A program made the position numbers and the translations under genes. From positions 1 to 64,000 of IMG/VR virus record IMGVR_UViG_3300037424_001256: 64,000 nucleotides of DNA, one strand, 5' to 3'. Under the pieces are notes generated by a model that saw only the letters and a list, made by a program, of their open reading frames with translations, had not been told where the DNA came from and did no database searches. Below are positions 37,575 through 54,014 of this stretch, one piece after another. Position 1 is the stretch's first letter. Each line of letters opens with the position of its first letter. The stretch is from a virus. Its lineage: Duplodnaviria; Caudoviricetes.

Positions 37575-37701
37575 TAATTAGTGGGGCGACTCTAGGGATC
37601 GTGCTGCTTCCGCACTCACTATTCCGAGTAACTAGGGGAGTTGCAGACGCATAAGGGGCGAAGAGCGTCATTGATAAAATAGTTTATAAGGGTGATAAAC
37701 T

Positions 37702-39052
37702 TTGAAAGATTTAATATCAAACTTAAGTAGGTTAAGTAAAGAGCAGAAAGCAAAGTTCATAGAAAGCTTGAGCCCTGAAGAACTTATAAACATTGCCTAC
37801 GATTGGGAGGGGGTGTTCGCTCGTCCCAGCCAATTAGAACCAGCCGGGGATTGGACCTATTGGTTGATCCTAGCTGGTCGTGGCTGGGGTTAGCTAACCT
37901 ATAGGCAAAACTAAAACTGCTGGCGAATGGATAAGAAAAAGAATATATACAGGAGAAAGCAGACATCTTGCGTTAATTGCTCCAAGGGCAGCAGATATCC
38001 GGGATGTTATGATAGAAGGGCCAAGTGGCTTGCTTAATTGTTTCGAGCCAAGTCATAGACCAATTTACGAACCTTCAAAGAGAAGAGTAACATTTCATAC
38101 TGGAGCTACGGCAATAACTTATTCCGGTGATGAACCAGATCAATTGCGCGGCCCCAATATAGACTCATTTTGGGTCGATGAGTTGGCGGCGTGTAGGTTG
38201 CAGAAAGAGATCATGGAAATGCTTGCCTTTTGCTTGAGAATTGGTTCTAATCCAAGAGGTATAATTACCACAACTCCAAAACCAACAGTCACCGTTAAGG
38301 GGTTGGTAAGACAAAAAAATGTAGTAGTAACAAGAGGTTCAACTTTTGAAAACAGGGATAACTTATCACCTGTTTTTTTTGACTCCATTATTGGAAAGTA
38401 CGAAAATACGCGTATTGGCAGACAAGAGTTGATGGGTGAAATACTGGAAGATAACCCAAAAGCTCTTTGGAAGAGTAGCGAAATAGACCAGCATAGGGTA
38501 AGTAAAGCACCTATCTTTAGAAGAATTGTTATTGGCGTTGATCCAGCGATTAGCGCAAATAAAAAGTCTGACGAAACAGGAATTGTTGCAGTTGCAAAAG
38601 GAGTGGATGATCATTTCTACGTCTTAGATGATCATTCTTGCAAGGAAACTCCCTCTAAGTGGGGTAAGGCTATCTGCAATCTATATGATAAATGGGAGGC
38701 AGACAAAGTTATTGGAGAGGTTAATCAGGGTGGAGATATGGTTTCTTATGTCATCAAGAACATTGATCCTTTGATTAACTTCAAATCAGTCCGGGCAACA
38801 AGAGGTAAGAAACTTAGAGCTGAGCCTGTAGCTAGCCTCTACGAATCTGGAAAAGTTCACCATTTAGGAGTATTTCCAGAACTTGAAACACAAATGGTAG
38901 AGTGGAATCCAGAGGAAGATACAGGATCTCCCGATAGAATAGATGCCTTATGTTGGGCAATTTGGGAATTGATGGATCTTAAAAAGAAGGGCATAGGTAA
39001 ATACAATCCTAGTGGAATAACTGATTTCAAAAGAGAAAGTCCAAATATGTAG
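37702..39052 (+). CDS. terL: terminase large subunit interrupted by a 16-nt insertion (stop + frameshift) in Walker A
   Basis: 37702-37890 ends LILAGRGWG; frame resumes GGC AAA ACT at 37904 (GKTKTAGEW) into ORF 38009-39052 with WVDELAA, GVDP, DETGI, ESGKVHH, PDRIDA. Confidence 0.88.
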
Positions 39053-39079: not shown

Positions 39080-39304
39080 GTGGAGGTGAGAAAAGTGGAA
39101 CAGTTATTAGAACACTGGAAACAGATGGTTTTTATAGTTAATCAGGAACAACGAATCGAGAAAGAGTGTCAGTATAATGGCATAGATTTTAATGTTGTTA
39201 TGCAATTAGCTGATTCGACTCACTGGAGCTTACAGAAAACATTTGATTTTTGCCTTCGGAATAAGGAGGCGATGCAAGAATGGCCTTGCCAAAAGATCCT
39301 ATAA
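39080..39304 (+). CDS. hypothetical protein
   Basis: 74-aa ORF between terL and portal. Confidence 0.45.
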   Translation: MEVRKVEQLLEHWKQMVFIVNQEQRIEKECQYNGIDFNVVMQLADSTHWSLQKTFDFCLRNKEAMQEWPCQKIL

Positions 39305-40593
39305 AACCAAATAAGAAAATTAGTCCTCAGATAGCTACAAAAGAGCTTGGCAGAACTGGCCTAATAGAATATTCGGGATTTGTTTACGAGGAACAATTAA
39401 AGCAATTATCCAGTTATCAGACAAGAATAAGAATTTACCGGGAAATGTCTGAGAATGATAGTGTAATTGGTTCCATTTTATTCGTCATTGATATGTTGAT
39501 TAGGCAAGTATTATGGAGAGTTCAAGCTGGGGGCTCAAGTGCTGAAGATCAAGAAGCAAAAGAATTTCTAGAGAGTTGTCTGCTGGATATGTCTTCCACT
39601 TGGGAAGATACCATTTCTGAAATCATGTCCTTTCTTGTCTACGGTTATTCTTACCATGAAATAGTTTATAAAAGGAGGATGGGAAATAGTTTAGATCCTA
39701 CAAAAAATAGTAGATTTAATGATGGTCGAATAGGTTGGAGAAAATTGCCCATAAGAGCACAAGATACATTATGGCGCTGGAACCTTGATGAACATGGTGG
39801 TATTCACGGCATGGTTCAACAAGCTCCACCAGATTATAGCCTCAGGGAAATACCTATGGAAAAAGCACTTCTTTTTAGGACTGGAATTCATAAAGGAAAT
39901 CCTGAAGGTAGATCAATATTAAGAACAAGCTATCGTACATGGTATATAAAAAAACGTATTGAAACTTATGAAGCTATCGGCGTGGAGAGAGAATTAGCTG
40001 GTTATCCAGTTTGTTATGTTCCGGTAGAGTGGACAGATGAGAATGCTACTCCGGGGGAAAAGCAAGCATATCAACAAATGAAAAATTTAGTAACCAATAT
40101 CAGGAGAGATGAACAAGAGGGAGCGGTACTACCTTCTATCTATGATGAGCAAAATAATCAGTTGGTAAAACTTGAACTATTAACTTCTGGTGGTAGGCGT
40201 ACTTTTGATACCAATCAAATTATTAATAGATTAGATCAGCGTCTTGCTATGACGGTTATGGCAGATTTTATATTACTTGGTATTTTGCCAAATGGTTCCT
40301 ATGCACTAAGCGCCGATAAATCAAAATTATTCAGTATAGCTCTAGGGACATGGCTTGACTCTATAGCAGCTACTTTTAATCGGTATGCTATTCCAAGACT
40401 ATTTGAATTAAATAATTTTAATGTTGATAAATTACCCACGCTGGAACATGGAGACATTCAACATAATGATCTAAAAGAGCTTGGTAATTATATTTCTAAA
40501 TTAGCTGGTGCTGGAGCGCCACTATTCCCAGATAATGAACTCGAAGATTTCTTAAAGAAAACAGCAGGATTACCTGTTACACCTAGAGATTAA
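39280..40593 (+). CDS. portal protein (DUF935-like)
   Basis: Position after terL; DGRIGWRKLPIRAQ, GNPEGRSILR, GVERELAGYP, SYALSADK. Confidence 0.85.
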   Translation: MALPKDPIKPNKKISPQIATKELGRTGLIEYSGFVYEEQLKQLSSYQTRIRIYREMSENDSVIGSILFVIDMLIRQVLWRVQAGGSSAEDQEAKEFLESCLLDMSSTWEDTISEIMSFLVYGYSYHEIVYKRRMGNSLDPTKNSRFNDGRIGWRKLPIRAQDTLWRWNLDEHGGIHGMVQQAPPDYSLREIPMEKALLFRTGIHKGNPEGRSILRTSYRTWYIKKRIETYEAIGVERELAGYPVCYVPVEWTDENATPGEKQAYQQMKNLVTNIRRDEQEGAVLPSIYDEQNNQLVKLELLTSGGRRTFDTNQIINRLDQRLAMTVMADFILLGILPNGSYALSADKSKLFSIALGTWLDSIAATFNRYAIPRLFELNNFNVDKLPTLEHGDIQHNDLKELGNYISKLAGAGAPLFPDNELEDFLKKTAGLPVTPRD

Positions 40594-40614: not shown

Positions 40615-40905
40615 ATGGGTTTCAAGGGTTTCAGTAATACGAAAACGAGAACTATAGCTGAAGCTTACTTTATCATCGAAAACGAAGCTACTATAAGAGC
40701 AACAGCATCTGCTTTTGGGGTTAGTAAGAGTACGGTCCACCGCGATATAAGGACTCATCTCGAAGATCTCGATCTAGTTCTTTACAATAAAGTGAGAGAT
40801 ATCATTAGCTTAAATTTAGCAGAACGACATATCAGGGGTGGTCAGGCTACAAAGCTTAAAAAGTTCAAAGAGTCATCTACTAAAAGTCTTGAGAGGAGAT
40901 CTTGA
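40615..40905 (+). CDS. spoIIID: SpoIIID-family sporulation transcription regulator
   Basis: TIRATASAFGVSKSTVHRDI...RHIRGGQATK, matching SpoIIID GVSKSTVHKD...RHLRGGEAT. Confidence 0.88.
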   Translation: MGFKGFSNTKTRTIAEAYFIIENEATIRATASAFGVSKSTVHRDIRTHLEDLDLVLYNKVRDIISLNLAERHIRGGQATKLKKFKESSTKSLERRS

Positions 40906-40909
40906 CACC

Positions 40910-41113
40910 TTGAATGGAGGAAATTTAGAATATCTAAAGAAAGAACCAATTATACATCCAAGTACCATAAACCTCAAAGCTGTAAGATGTCCGATTTGTA
41001 ATCATCTACTTGGTTTTGTAGATGGAAGATCACAAATTAAATGCCACAAGTGTAAGTACCTACACTTGTCAGATGATACTAGAGTAGCGCCGACTACCAA
41101 TGCATTGATTTAA
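40910..41113 (+). CDS. Mu Com-like zinc-ribbon regulator
   Basis: GAGGAG RBS + TTG; VRCPICNHLL..IKCHKCK. Confidence 0.65.
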   Translation: MNGGNLEYLKKEPIIHPSTINLKAVRCPICNHLLGFVDGRSQIKCHKCKYLHLSDDTRVAPTTNALI

Positions 41114-50636: not shown

Positions 50637-50993
50637 ATGACAAAGTCTAAAAGGAGATTATCAACGGATGATATTCTCAAGTCCACCGGACTAATTGAGA
50701 AGGAAGTTGAAGTTGAGCAATGGGGTGGATCAGTAATGATCCGGGAATTCAGTAAAGGTAGGCAACAACAGATTAGGAAAGAAGCAAGCGTTAGCGATGA
50801 GATAGACGTTGATAAATTAGAGCTTTTAATGTTTATTCATGGCGTTATTGATCCTGTTTTTTCTGAACAGGATTATTATGCGCTCAGAGAAAAATCTGCA
50901 ATGGCAATCGACAAGGTTCTTAAGGAAATTATGGCTATATCAGGTCTGGGTGAAAAGGATATTAAAGAAGCTGAGAAAAAATTTCGCACTTGA
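50637..50993 (+). CDS. tail assembly chaperone
   Basis: EVEVEQWGGSVMIRE; between tube and tape measure genes. Confidence 0.75.
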   Translation: MTKSKRRLSTDDILKSTGLIEKEVEVEQWGGSVMIREFSKGRQQQIRKEASVSDEIDVDKLELLMFIHGVIDPVFSEQDYYALREKSAMAIDKVLKEIMAISGLGEKDIKEAEKKFRT

Positions 50994-51159
50994 TGGAGAT
51001 TTTAGATTCCAATTCATATTGGCTAAAGATCTAGGTAAGACAGTTAATGAAATAAGACAAATGGGAACGGTTGAGTTTTATCAATGGATGGCCTTTTATT
51101 CTTATCAAGAAAAAATGAGGAAAGCTGAAGAAAATAAAGCAAAATCAAAAAGAAGATAA
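50983..51159 (+). CDS. frameshift extension of the tail chaperone (GT-like)
   Basis: Overlapping +1 frame FALDGDFRFQFILAKDLGKTVNEI..EFYQWMAFY with no own RBS. Confidence 0.55.
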   Translation, partial: FALDGDFRFQFILAKDLGKTVNEIRQMGTVEFYQWMAFYSYQEKMRKAEENKAKSKRR

Positions 51160-51182: not shown

Positions 51183-54014
51183 TTGTATTTTCCTTATCCA
51201 GATGAGACTGGAGGTGAAATGATGGCAATAACTATTGCAGATATTCAGATATTAATTGGGGGAAATACTGCTGGTTTACAGAGTAGCTTGAGTGACGCGG
51301 AGCGTCGAATGCTTGTCTTTAGGGCTAATGCTTTAATTGTTGGGAGTGCGTTGCAACAAAATGTAACAGCACCAATTGTAGCAATGGGAAAAGCTGCCCT
51401 CAAGGCTGGAATTGAATTTGATGAATCAATGACTAGTATTAAAGCTGTAACTGGGGCTACTTCTGAAGAGATGGAGTTTCTTTCTGATACAGCAAAAGCA
51501 ATGTCCAAGAATACGATATTCTCATCTAAGGAAGCTGCTGATGGAATGTTGGAACTTTTAAAGGCTGGTGTTAAAACAAAAGATGTTACCTTTGCCTTAA
51601 AGGGAGTCTTGGATTTAGCTGCTGCAGGAGAAATAAGTTTATCTGATGCAGCTATTGTGGCAAGTACCTCAATGAATGCATTCAAGAAGGATATGCTGAC
51701 TACTTCCGATGTAGCGAATATTCTTGCTGGAACCGCTAAGGCTTCGACAACAGATGTTCATGGTCTTAGGCTAGGACTGTCACAGGCATCGGCTGTAGCA
51801 GCAGGGCTAGGGTTGACGTTCGAAGATACTGCTACGGCTCTAGGTTTGTTCGCGAACAATGGCCTTAGGGGCTCGGATGCTGGTACATCCTTGAAAACAA
51901 TGTTATTGAATTTGCAACCAACGACTAAAAAACAAAAGGAATTATTTCAAGAATTAGGATTAACTACGGCAGATGGTACTAATGCCTTTTTCGATCAAAC
52001 TGGTAAAATTAAGAATTTAGCTGGTATTGCTAGTACGCTTGAGGGCGCTCTTGCAGGAATGACTGATGCACAGAGATTAGCTACCTTGGAAGCATTATTT
52101 GGAACAGATGCTATCAGAGCTGGAAATATTATTTTTAAAGAGGGAGAAAAAGGAGTAACCGCATTTAAGTTGGCAATTGGAAATGTAACTGCAGAAGAAG
52201 TAGCAAAGACGAAGACTGAAGCTCTAGGTGCCCAGATAAAGATGCTCAAAAATGATATAGAACGTGTTGGAATTTCAGTGACAGAACAATTTGCAACCCC
52301 ACTTAAGTTTTTAGTGACGGTTATGAAGGATGTCATTTCATGGTTTGATAAATTAAATCCTAATGTAAAGGGATTTATTGTTATTGTGCTTGGGATTATG
52401 GCAGCCGTTGGTCCTATATTAGTAGGGCTAGCTGGATTATCTGTAGTATTAGCAGCTTTAGTTCCAGTGGCAACTTTTGTTGGAACATCCGTGGCGGGAT
52501 TAATAGCAGGATTTTTATTAATACCAATAGCGATCGCAGCTGTAATAGCCATTGGTATATCTCTATATAAGAATTGGGATCTAATAAAGACAAATGCATC
52601 AAGAGATTGGAAAGAAATAACAGATTTAATTTTGAATTTTTGCTATTCTGTAGACACAGCAATTAATAATTTCATCAAAGCCGTAGTAAAGTATTTCAGT
52701 GATGGATGGTCTAGTGTAAAAACTAAAACTTCTGCATTCATGAGTAGCATCGGTACATTTTTTACTGATGGATGGTCAAGTATAAAGACAATGACATTGA
52801 CTTTCGTAAATGATGTTGTTTCGGCATTTAAGGATGGATGGAACAATATGAAGAAATCTGTTTCAGATGGATGGGAAAATATAAAGAATACTATTAAGGA
52901 ATTTATTCCAAAGATTGATGATATTATTATGGAATTTTTAATGAAGCTTGCTTATGATTTTGGCTTTGCACTTGGTACAATAGTTAAGTATTTCATAGAT
53001 TTGCCGGGAAAAATAATTGGTGCAGTAATAAGCTTAAGGGATAAAGTTATTGGTGGTTGGGAAGAAATTAAGGATTTCGTTATTAATGAAGTCCCCAAAA
53101 TGATTAATAGCGTTATAACATTCTTTAAGGAATTACCGGGGAATGTATCTAATGCAATGCAAGCTGTATGGCAAGCCATATCAGATAAATGGTCAGAAAT
53201 AAAGGCAAATACCTTAGCGTGGTTAGGAATTATATGGCAAGCCATATCAGATAAATGGCGTGATGTAGCTGTAAATACTGATGCATGGTGGGCGAGCATC
53301 GTGGAAAGAGTAGGGAATTGGCTTAGGTCATTGCCCGGAAAGGCAAGTACGTGGTTACAACAAACTTGGCAATCAGTTTCAGATAAATGGCGTGATATAG
53401 CCGTAAATACTGATGCATGGTGGGATAGTATCGTTAATAGAGCTGGTAGTTGGCTTAAAACATTACCGGGAAGAGTGGGTGAATGGTTAGCAAGTTTACC
53501 GGGTAAATTTACTGACATATGGGAAGGTATATTTAGGTATATATCTGGCTTGTACAACGCCTTTTATAATGTAGCAGCTAATTTAGGTGGAGCATTCTGG
53601 GCAGGTTTTAAAAGGGCAATTGGGTATAGCTCACCTTCATACATGGAACGTGCATTTATGGCTATGGCAGATCAGGCCAAGACTACTTCCAGAGATATAA
53701 CAGCACTTATACCTTCTTTCGTTAGAGCTGGTAAGGGAATTTCAAGTGCTTTCACAACGCCAGAAATGGGAATGATGGGTTCACCAGCATATGGAGGATC
53801 TGGAACTGGATCAATGGGTCTTAGTGTTCCAATTTCCCCAATGGGAACTTCTCCGGTGACAACGCCAGAAACAAATGAAGGAGAAGGATCATGGGGAGGG
53901 TTAAATGTTTCTGTTGGTCAGATGGTTGTCAGGGAAGAGGTAGATATTTTAAAAGTAGCACAACAGTTATATAGACTACAAAAAGATAGAACTAGGGGAA
54001 GGGGGTCGCGCTAA
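51183..54014 (+). CDS. tape measure protein (TP901 family core; likely start 51219-51222)
   Basis: EFDESM, FSSKEAADGM, GLRGSDAGTSLKTM, LFGTDA; Trp-periodic repeats. Confidence 0.92.
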   Translation: MYFPYPDETGGEMMAITIADIQILIGGNTAGLQSSLSDAERRMLVFRANALIVGSALQQNVTAPIVAMGKAALKAGIEFDESMTSIKAVTGATSEEMEFLSDTAKAMSKNTIFSSKEAADGMLELLKAGVKTKDVTFALKGVLDLAAAGEISLSDAAIVASTSMNAFKKDMLTTSDVANILAGTAKASTTDVHGLRLGLSQASAVAAGLGLTFEDTATALGLFANNGLRGSDAGTSLKTMLLNLQPTTKKQKELFQELGLTTADGTNAFFDQTGKIKNLAGIASTLEGALAGMTDAQRLATLEALFGTDAIRAGNIIFKEGEKGVTAFKLAIGNVTAEEVAKTKTEALGAQIKMLKNDIERVGISVTEQFATPLKFLVTVMKDVISWFDKLNPNVKGFIVIVLGIMAAVGPILVGLAGLSVVLAALVPVATFVGTSVAGLIAGFLLIPIAIAAVIAIGISLYKNWDLIKTNASRDWKEITDLILNFCYSVDTAINNFIKAVVKYFSDGWSSVKTKTSAFMSSIGTFFTDGWSSIKTMTLTFVNDVVSAFKDGWNNMKKSVSDGWENIKNTIKEFIPKIDDIIMEFLMKLAYDFGFALGTIVKYFIDLPGKIIGAVISLRDKVIGGWEEIKDFVINEVPKMINSVITFFKELPGNVSNAMQAVWQAISDKWSEIKANTLAWLGIIWQAISDKWRDVAVNTDAWWASIVERVGNWLRSLPGKASTWLQQTWQSVSDKWRDIAVNTDAWWDSIVNRAGSWLKTLPGRVGEWLASLPGKFTDIWEGIFRYISGLYNAFYNVAANLGGAFWAGFKRAIGYSSPSYMERAFMAMADQAKTTSRDITALIPSFVRAGKGISSAFTTPEMGMMGSPAYGGSGTGSMGLSVPISPMGTSPVTTPETNEGEGSWGGLNVSVGQMVVREEVDILKVAQQLYRLQKDRTRGRGSR

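Follow-up and report, generated by a model that had tools for sequence, protein, structure and literature searches.

Candidate stop-triggered translational bypassing at the Walker A motif of a phage large terminase gene

The terL locus and its 16-nt insert

The stretch of DNA analysed here (the window) comprises the first 64 kb, positions 1 to 64,000, of IMG/VR virus record IMGVR_UViG_3300037424_001256, an 88,032-bp contig with a GC content of ~37% that was rated 100% complete by CheckV. An earlier reading made from the letters alone (the sequence-only reading) had called the source a prophage; the record is that of a virus contig, and no prophage is demonstrated by it. The gene in question is terL, which encodes the large terminase and is the sole DNA-packaging motor gene of this uncultured 88-kb phage. 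It is divided within its Walker A motif (P-loop) into two open reading frames (ORFs), termed here the N-part and the C-part. The C-part generated hits on PF03237 (1e-19) and PF17289 (1e-17) in Pfam, identifying the product as a large terminase with Terminase_6N and Terminase_6C domains (GTA/Mu-like headful type), and the AGRGxGKT Walker A motif is complete only once the N- and C-parts are joined. The features of the locus are as follows.

37688..37695, + strand: Shine-Dalgarno-like AAGGGTGA, read off the sequence, 6 nt upstream of the TTG start of terL
37702..37890, + strand: terL N-part, 63 codons, C-terminus ...WLILAGRGWG, spanning strand beta-1 and the N-terminal half of the Walker A loop
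37888..37890, + strand: putative take-off codon GGT, encoding the final Gly of the N-part; in the intact sister gene (L234) GGT is followed directly by AAA here
37891..37893, + strand: TAG stop codon in the zero frame, followed by C; with GGT in the P site, it would occupy the ribosomal A site
37891..37906, + strand: 16 extra nt, comprising a 13-nt untranslated gap and the proposed landing codon, with stops in all three frames (TAG at 37891, TAA at 37895, TAG at 37902)
37888..37899, + strand: 12-nt palindrome GGTTAGCTAACC; the predicted RNA fold is a stem of 4-5 bp closed by an AGCU loop, its 5′ arm containing the take-off and stop codons
37904..37906, + strand: proposed landing codon GGC, the earliest GGN triplet in any frame after take-off
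37907..39052, + strand: terL C-part, 381 codons and a stop, beginning with the Lys-Thr of Walker A; Terminase_6N and Terminase_6C
39280..40593, + strand: Mu-type portal gene, intact, in a head module that is otherwise undamaged

At 37888-37906 the gene reads GGT TAG, a further 10 nt, GGC, and then AAA. Intact homologues carry LILAGRG[WF]GKT with no residue between the G and the K, and deletion of exactly 16 nt from the window gene yields LILAGRGWG|KTKTAGEW, which matches them. At the DNA level, the nearest intact sister (protein P0004, with its DNA in L234) has GGC TGG GGT AAA ACC, where the window has GGC TGG GGT, the 16 extra nt, and AAA ACT. The frame of the C-part (+1 relative to the N-part) is closed by TAA at 37895-97, is open from 37898, where it reads P-I-G-K-T-K-T-A-G-E-W, and runs without a stop to 39052, and the third frame is shut by TAG at 37902-04. 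As all three frames carry stops inside the 16 nt, a one-step frameshift cannot repair this terL, and +1 or -1 frameshifting was ruled out for the window. The minimum skip is at least 8 nt, and a skip of exactly 16 nt restores the P-loop. Reassignment of TAG does not rescue the gene either, since the frame still differs and a TAA follows. No ATG, GTG or TTG lies in the frame of the C-part upstream of 38009; thus, the Lys-Thr of Walker A is readable only by ribosomes that come from upstream.

The 12-nt palindrome overlaps a second one of 8 nt, CCTATAGG, at 37898-905. For random 16-mers placed at this site, a 12-nt palindrome is expected by chance in 0.4% (p ~0.004) and closure of all frames in ~5-6%. 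The sequence-only reading had described a terL Walker A motif broken by a 16-nt insert, with a GGT Gly codon and a stop within overlapping palindromes and a second Gly codon 16 nt on; all of this was borne out, homologues having the G and the K contiguous and removal of 16 nt restoring the P-loop. A repeated or mobile mini-element was rejected, as neither GGTTAGCTAACC nor the insert occurs a second time in the window or the 88-kb genome. A group I intron or an intein at the window site was rejected as well, the insert being only 16 nt long and matching no Rfam family.

Independently assembled relatives with a gap at the same junction

Two proteins fall into 90% clusters with the ORF pieces of the window: P0158 (68 amino acids, ending in GRGWG), which is 97% identical to the N-part, and P0157 (390 amino acids), which is 96% identical to the C-part. 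Each is recorded on an 11,456-nt ENA/JGI contig, apparently one and the same, from an assembly independent of that of the window. P0157 starts with MAGDNYHIGKT, which is the frame of the C-part extended in the 5′ direction through the gap, and back-translation of the two proteins gives CGT GGC TGG GGA TAA YTA YCA YAT HGG N AAR, with a gap of 16 nt as in the window. The stop codon is TAA, not TAG, the take-off codon is GGA, not GGT, at least 3 of the 16 gap positions differ, and the proteins differ by 3-4%. If gap positions 4 and 7 of this relative are both T, two compensatory pairs (T-A to A-T and G-C to A-T) would keep its palindrome in register. In another relative (L016), whose N-part is 94% identical to that of the window and whose locus shows 84.5% nucleotide identity, a 31-nt gap occupies the same junction. 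It begins with TGA after a GGG Gly codon, has its stop codon within a 9-bp hairpin with a GAAA loop (z-score -3.8), and resembles the window gap at its 3′ end (TATTAGC in L016, TATAGGC in the window).

These relatives bear on the suspicion, raised in the sequence-only reading, that the insert is an assembly error. Palindromic junk, e.g., from a chimeric or hairpin-primed read, can form in amplified libraries, and the window gap was itself taken from an assembly. Because the P0157/P0158 assembly has a gap of the same length with substitutions in it, an assembly artefact is excluded for practical purposes, and the two genes have diverged without losing the gap. Gaps at the identical junction are present in independent assemblies of JGI, ENA and Logan samples, one of them being 16 nt long in a near-identical gene, and an artefact would not begin with a stop codon each time. 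We therefore consider a sequencing or assembly origin of the insert highly improbable.

Gaps of many lengths at the Gly|Lys junction

A survey of homologues, as proposed in the sequence-only reading, revealed gapped terL genes in independent metagenomes, at least 12 of them distinct and all interrupted at the Gly|Lys junction of the P-loop. Gaps were located via C-part homologues with truncated or odd N-termini, via N-fragment ORFs, and by a pattern scan of IMG/VR; profile searches with N-fragments added few cases because such small ORFs are rarely on record. The following gap classes were found.

1 nt extra: GGN T AAR (L018, L038, L046 and L049; GC content ~60% where measured)
5 nt extra: GGT TAG GT AAR (L013, L030-32, L048, L051, L056 and L068)
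9 nt extra, in frame: GGA TAG AAT AGA AAA (L015)
11 nt extra: GGT TAG CGTGT GGA AAA (L014)
14 nt extra: GGG TAG CCTAAAGT GGA AAG (L017)
15 nt extra, in frame: GGC TAA CCA AAC CAA CGC AAA (L033)
16 nt extra: GGT TAG ... GGC AAA in the window (window and the P0157/P0158 contig)
17 nt extra: GGT TGA ... GGA AAA (L044)
31 nt extra: GGG TGA ... AGC AAA (L016)

In every gapped terL a stop codon stands directly 3′ of the Gly codon, including the five genes that were found by C-part homology irrespective of a stop. The IMG/VR scan for a stop after this Gly (LAGRGWG and a stop) returned 8 true terL matches versus at least 120 intact LAGRGWGK genes, and the control scan with the stop one codon later (LAGRGWGK and a stop) returned 0 matches. 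GRGFG followed by a stop likewise had 0 matches in IMG/VR, the one GFG case (L014) being from outside IMG/VR. The 23 contigs found with WTYWLILAGRG were all intact, a metagenome scan found distant intact relatives only, the terL products of cultured phages were all <50% identical, and a scan of the prophages of 185,579 species genomes gave chance matches only and no gapped terL. The C-part of the gapped genes has ~375-401 codons, a normal stop and no second lesion wherever the contig reaches the end of the gene; L016, L017 and L018 stop at a contig edge, and the end of the C-part is not covered there. In the tree the gapped genes are scattered, which requires at least 3-4 gains or losses, and the window gene, L014 and L033 each neighbour an intact gene.

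Among the 8 distinct hop-type gaps, 5 have GGN immediately upstream of the Lys codon at which decoding resumes (binomial p ~1e-5, with a random GGN frequency of ~4.5% for this base composition). Two more gap classes match the take-off codon at positions 2 and 3 (GGA/AGA and GGC/CGC), and L016 (GGG/AGC) is the exception.

The 1-nt class has an arrangement of its own. All four genes read AGG GGG TGG GGN T AAR, with AGGGGG located exactly 3 nt upstream of the shift codon and the stop following. AGGGGG occupies these two codons in 4/4 of the 1-nt genes versus 0/106 distinct intact genes (Fisher p ~2e-7). It is likely, judging from this arrangement, that the 1-nt class represents a programmed +1 frameshift in terL; as the class looks like a classical +1 frameshift, the junction appears to be a recoding site, not a breakage point. 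The stretch L018:368-1636 is such a 1-nt-gap terL with an arrangement like that of prfB.

The gap lengths also speak to removal of the insert by something other than the ribosome, i.e., a mini-intron, RNA cleavage and ligation, RNA editing, or DNA excision in replicating genomes. A genuine group I intron does lie 5 nt upstream of the junction in two relatives (see below), so that short remnants are conceivable, and purifying selection is silent on the level at which a gap is skipped. Gaps of 1, 5 and 9 nt are, however, far below the size required by any known splicing system, the window site has no Rfam match, the insert lacks direct-repeat borders, and a Gly codon and stop followed at a distance by GGN constitute a translational, not a splicing, signature. 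On balance such removal appears improbable. An archaeal-type mini-intron with a bulge-helix-bulge motif was rejected by inspection, since it would remove 15 nt and leave the frame unrestored, and since the site lacks the outer helices.

Purifying selection on both halves of gapped genes

The N-parts of the window gene and L016 differ at 20 synonymous and 5 non-synonymous positions, corresponding to a ratio of non-synonymous to synonymous substitution rates (dN/dS) of 0.037. Four 5-nt lineages from three samples (L013, L030, L031 and L032, all GGT TAG GT AAR) have diverged further, with synonymous rates (dS) of 0.2-0.77, and their dN/dS values are 0.03-0.055 for the N-part and 0.03-0.12 for the C-part. 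These values indicate that strong purifying selection has acted on each half of terL, in its respective frame, while the gap was present. One phage genome with the 5-nt gap, of 83.5 kb, has direct terminal repeats and was rated 100% complete. The sequence-only reading had described both halves as otherwise intact.

A stop inside Walker A nevertheless has the look of an inactivating lesion, and the sequence-only reading had listed the footprint of an inactivating element as an alternative. The insert would then be a null allele of terL in a phage that is defective, decaying, or complemented by co-infecting relatives. The exact insert was seen in one viral contig only, and gapped genes are a minority in IMG/VR, as would suit such an allele. 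Against it stand the dN/dS values of 0.04 for the comparison with the 31-nt-gap relative and 0.03-0.12 among the 5-nt lineages, and the same-length gap in a 96-97% identical gene from another assembly, where the gap has taken up substitutions but the protein has changed conservatively. Neither the complete gapped genes nor the module around terL showed a further lesion, and the head-tail module of the window consists of tightly packed, long, intact ORFs. The lesions are confined to one codon junction and start with a stop, the control position giving 0 matches, and gapped prophage copies were not found in the species genomes scanned. Purifying selection and recurrence at one junction make a null allele unlikely, though it is the rival to which we would still give the most room.

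Proposed bypassing in the window gene

We propose, with a probability of roughly 0.7, that full-length TerL is made from the window gene by ribosomal hopping, that is, programmed translational bypassing. The sequence-only reading had suggested the same, and the suggestion gains support from the recurring gap, the stop that always follows the Gly codon, and the purifying selection on both halves. The anatomy of the site, its recurrence at one junction and this selection were observed, and hopping itself, with its efficiency and purpose, is inferred from them.

Ribosomes would start at TTG 37702 and come to a point where GGU (Gly63) fills the P site, UAG fills the A site and the nascent chain ends in GWG. 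A C directly after UAG makes for weak termination in E. coli. Termination would compete with departure of the peptidyl-tRNA-Gly from its codon; most ribosomes would probably stop, freeing a 63-residue fragment. In a fraction of ribosomes, the tRNA-Gly with anticodon GCC would release GGU, the mRNA would slide by 16 nt, and the tRNA would re-pair at GGC (37904-06). A tRNA-Gly with the GCC anticodon reads both GGU and GGC. Lys-tRNA would next decode AAA, and the resulting full-length TerL would contain an intact AGRGWGKT P-loop. Take-off may be aided, as in T4 gene 60, by the small hairpin whose 5′ arm holds both the take-off and the stop codon; this hairpin is regarded here as an optional enhancer because most other gap classes have none.

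Several points weigh against this proposal. The evidence for bypassing comes from comparison of sequences, and unstimulated stop-hopping in E. coli, which Weiss et al. 1987 are said to have described, is reportedly only ~1% efficient, no higher yield being indicated here. The gap of the closest relative, P0157/P0158, is known from back-translation only, and no second viral contig contained the exact 16-nt sequence. In three gap classes the final codon is AGA, CGC or AGC, not GGN, so that re-pairing cannot be perfect everywhere. A significant hairpin was found only in L016, most gap classes being without one. The hairpin noted in the sequence-only reading accordingly holds in part: the palindrome is real (p ~0.004) and the stem of GGTTAGCTAACC is present in the minimum free energy fold, yet this region is no stabler than shuffled sequence (z-score -0.7), and hairpins are not conserved across gap classes. 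A conserved hairpin as a general feature of the gaps was rejected on these grounds.

Two potential aids encoded by the phage were also rejected. The whole 88 kb contains no tRNA gene, leaving no candidate for a suppressor or special tRNA. The phage encodes a 283-nt RNA that mimics the GTPase centre of 23S rRNA, and a link between this RNA and the insert, through weakened release factor 1 (RF1), was considered. The mimic RNA showed no association with gapped terL: a copy with 80% identity is present in an 88-kb relative with an intact terL (L232, G003:C1:45121-45400), and the RNA was not detected by BLAST in two 5-nt-gap relatives.

Homing elements at the P-loop and the origin of the gaps

The P-loop codons of terL are also a hotspot for homing elements in related genes. 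A LAGLIDADG intein of ~350 residues lies between K and T of GRGYGK|T in L003:934-2060 (same as L019) and ends with ...THN|T; its first residue is Met, not Cys or Ser. P0129 carries an intein-like insert after GK. A group I intron without an ORF interrupts the Phe codon of GRGFGKT in L235:2179-2412 (identical in L236), with a hit on Rfam RF00028 (65.3 bits, E 2e-16), U at the 5′ splice site and G at the 3′ end of the intron. Its position is 5 nt upstream of the Gly|Lys junction, and joining of ...AGA GGG T to TT GGA AAA ACC restores the P-loop. HNH endonuclease genes are located directly upstream of two gapped terL genes and overlap their starts (L014:2227-2877 and L017:76-933); the window terL has no adjoining endonuclease gene. 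A seeming second intein lies at Walker B in L018 (~880-1636, ...AAW|CLVGETLVTM...), the contig ending within it.

In T4, the gene 60 insert shields the genome from its linked endonuclease (PMC5009743; bioRxiv 10.1101/2022.08.31.505936). By analogy, the gap in the window gene probably arose, spreads or persists by disrupting the DNA site of homing endonucleases of P-loop introns and inteins. Short gaps, we infer, would persist because they destroy the endonuclease target, and would be tolerated thanks to hopping. The sequence-only reading had assigned to hopping a role in regulating packaging. This is a possible purpose, and lowering or conditioning TerL output may be an alternative or secondary role; immunity to homing endonucleases is the likelier origin, because an intron and an intein share the site.

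More broadly, the junction could be an allelic series of recoding sites, comprising an RF2-like +1 shift, overlapping 5-nt hops, and bypasses of 9-31 nt with or without hairpins, that arise repeatedly as immunity scars against P-loop-homing introns and inteins. We hold this extension tentatively, at slightly less than even odds. If it is true, stop-triggered bypassing would be a common, evolvable solution in uncultured phages, not a T4 curiosity.

Other features near terL

A 126-nt spacer (37575-37700) separates a PIG-L-like gene from terL; it is GC-richer than the genome and looks structured. An Rfam search of 37600-38200 gave a single chance match, far below threshold, that overlaps the last 35 nt of this spacer. 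Between terL and the portal gene lies a 74-amino-acid ORF (39080-39304) without a Pfam family; relatives have counterparts of 69-82 amino acids in the same position. The ORFs at 40615-41113 were considered as a split Mu-F gene and hence a second lesion downstream; they are distinct genes, not fragments. A pair of ORFs that overlap each other in different frames (118 and 106 amino acids; 50637-51159) immediately precedes the 943-amino-acid tape-measure gene (51183-54014). The spot just before the tape-measure gene is the usual place of the tail-chaperone -1 frameshift.

Significance and comparison with known recoding systems

Natural bypassing has been documented in a handful of systems, namely T4 gene 60 and its homologues, the yeast mitochondrial byps, and the Hau3 candidate, and its sequence requirements are mainly known from one 50-nt example. 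The terL series combines a fixed take-off context (GRGWG and a stop) with natural gaps of many lengths and sequences, and the gene concerned is essential and needs exact rejoining. It bears on how far a ribosome may slide without a strong hairpin, how closely the landing codon must match, and whether a GWG nascent peptide drives take-off. For annotation, it matters that a gapped terL is recorded either as a pair of ORFs or as a truncated protein. For phage evolution, the series points to a possible arms race in which homing elements are opposed by decoding tricks that make protective inserts tolerable.

Among bacterial recoding sites, the +1 site of prfB, the gene for release factor 2 (RF2), reads AGG GGG UAU CUU UGA C, with a Shine-Dalgarno-like element 3 nt upstream of the shift codon. 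This arrangement is shared by the 1-nt relatives only; the frames of the window gene do not overlap, and it has CGT GGC, not AGGGGG, at the corresponding codons. In stop hopping of E. coli (+5/+6), as proposed for the window, the peptidyl-tRNA leaves the codon adjacent to the stop and re-pairs with a matching codon a few nt on, and the 5-nt relatives (GGT TAG GT) have the exact geometry of an overlapping hop. The E. coli hops, said to have been reported by Weiss et al. 1987 and O'Connor 1989, are synthetic or adventitious and reportedly ~1% efficient, whereas the terL sites are natural, conserved, and located in an essential gene.

T4 gene 60 (Huang 1988; Bonocora 2011; bioRxiv 10.1101/2022.08.31.505936) shares with the window gene a Gly take-off codon, an immediate stop, landing on a Gly codon, and stops in all frames; the putative hairpin of the window would also resemble that of gene 60 in containing the take-off and stop codons within its 5′ arm. 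Both systems have the gap in an essential phage gene at the target site of a homing element. The window gene has further features of gene 60-type bypassing, i.e., two non-overlapping ORFs that encode one contiguous protein, a stop after the take-off codon, and a landing codon that can pair. The HNH-terL layout of L014 and L017 resembles the T4 mobA-gene 60 cassette, and L016 has a GNRA-capped hairpin at take-off. Unlike gene 60, the window gene has a gap of 16 nt, not 50 nt, a tiny hairpin, a wobble mismatch between the take-off and landing codons, and no sequence homology to the T4 gene. A gene 60-type 5′ stem-loop, a defined nascent-peptide signal, and a GAG mini-Shine-Dalgarno 6 nt before the landing codon were not found in the window.

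The byps of Magnusiomyces capitatus mitochondria (Lang 2014; Nosek 2015) resemble the terL gaps in being short inserts (27-55 nt) with matching codons that are gained and lost between relatives. They differ in being GC-rich mobile elements with many copies per genome and an unassigned sense codon in the A site; the window insert is single-copy.

The closest parallel by gene and position is the candidate bypassing in terL of Streptomyces phage Hau3 and of the prophages StrepC.1 and S. catenulae (Smith et al. 2013; PMC10732093; PMC5009743), where the gene is interrupted at the same GWG|K junction as in the window. Hau3 terL carries 10-nt inserts that start with the rare codon UUA, after ...KGWG and before K (PMC10732093). 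The bypass junction peptide was detected by mass spectrometry in E. coli with UAA replacing UUA (PMC10732093), and a 2016 review of recoding suggested the KGWG nascent peptide as a stimulator (PMC5009743). Full-text literature searches yielded no description of gaps in the terminase family of the window, and a December 2024 preprint on bypassing cites just gene 60, the Hau3 terminase, and the yeast mitochondrial cases. Both the Hau3-type genes and the window gene have a short, frame-breaking gap (7-10 nt versus 16 nt) between residues that adjoin each other in intact homologues, and in both the codon that enters the A site after Gly is poorly decoded. The Hau3 type has the rare Leu codon UUA in this position, which ties it to the bldA tRNA and Streptomyces development, whereas the window gene and its relatives have TAG, TAA or TGA. 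Hau3 terL has two gaps, and 3/100 genes were gapped there; the genes described here have one gap each, with lengths of 1-31 nt over many lineages. The Hau3 hosts are high-GC, in contrast to the ~37% GC of the window clade, whose host is probably a spore-forming Firmicute. The window terminase belongs to Terminase_6N, and the published Hau3 pieces do not show the AGRGWGKT signature. Stop-triggered short-gap bypassing in terL, as proposed for the window gene, is thus a variant distinct from the published UUA-triggered case.

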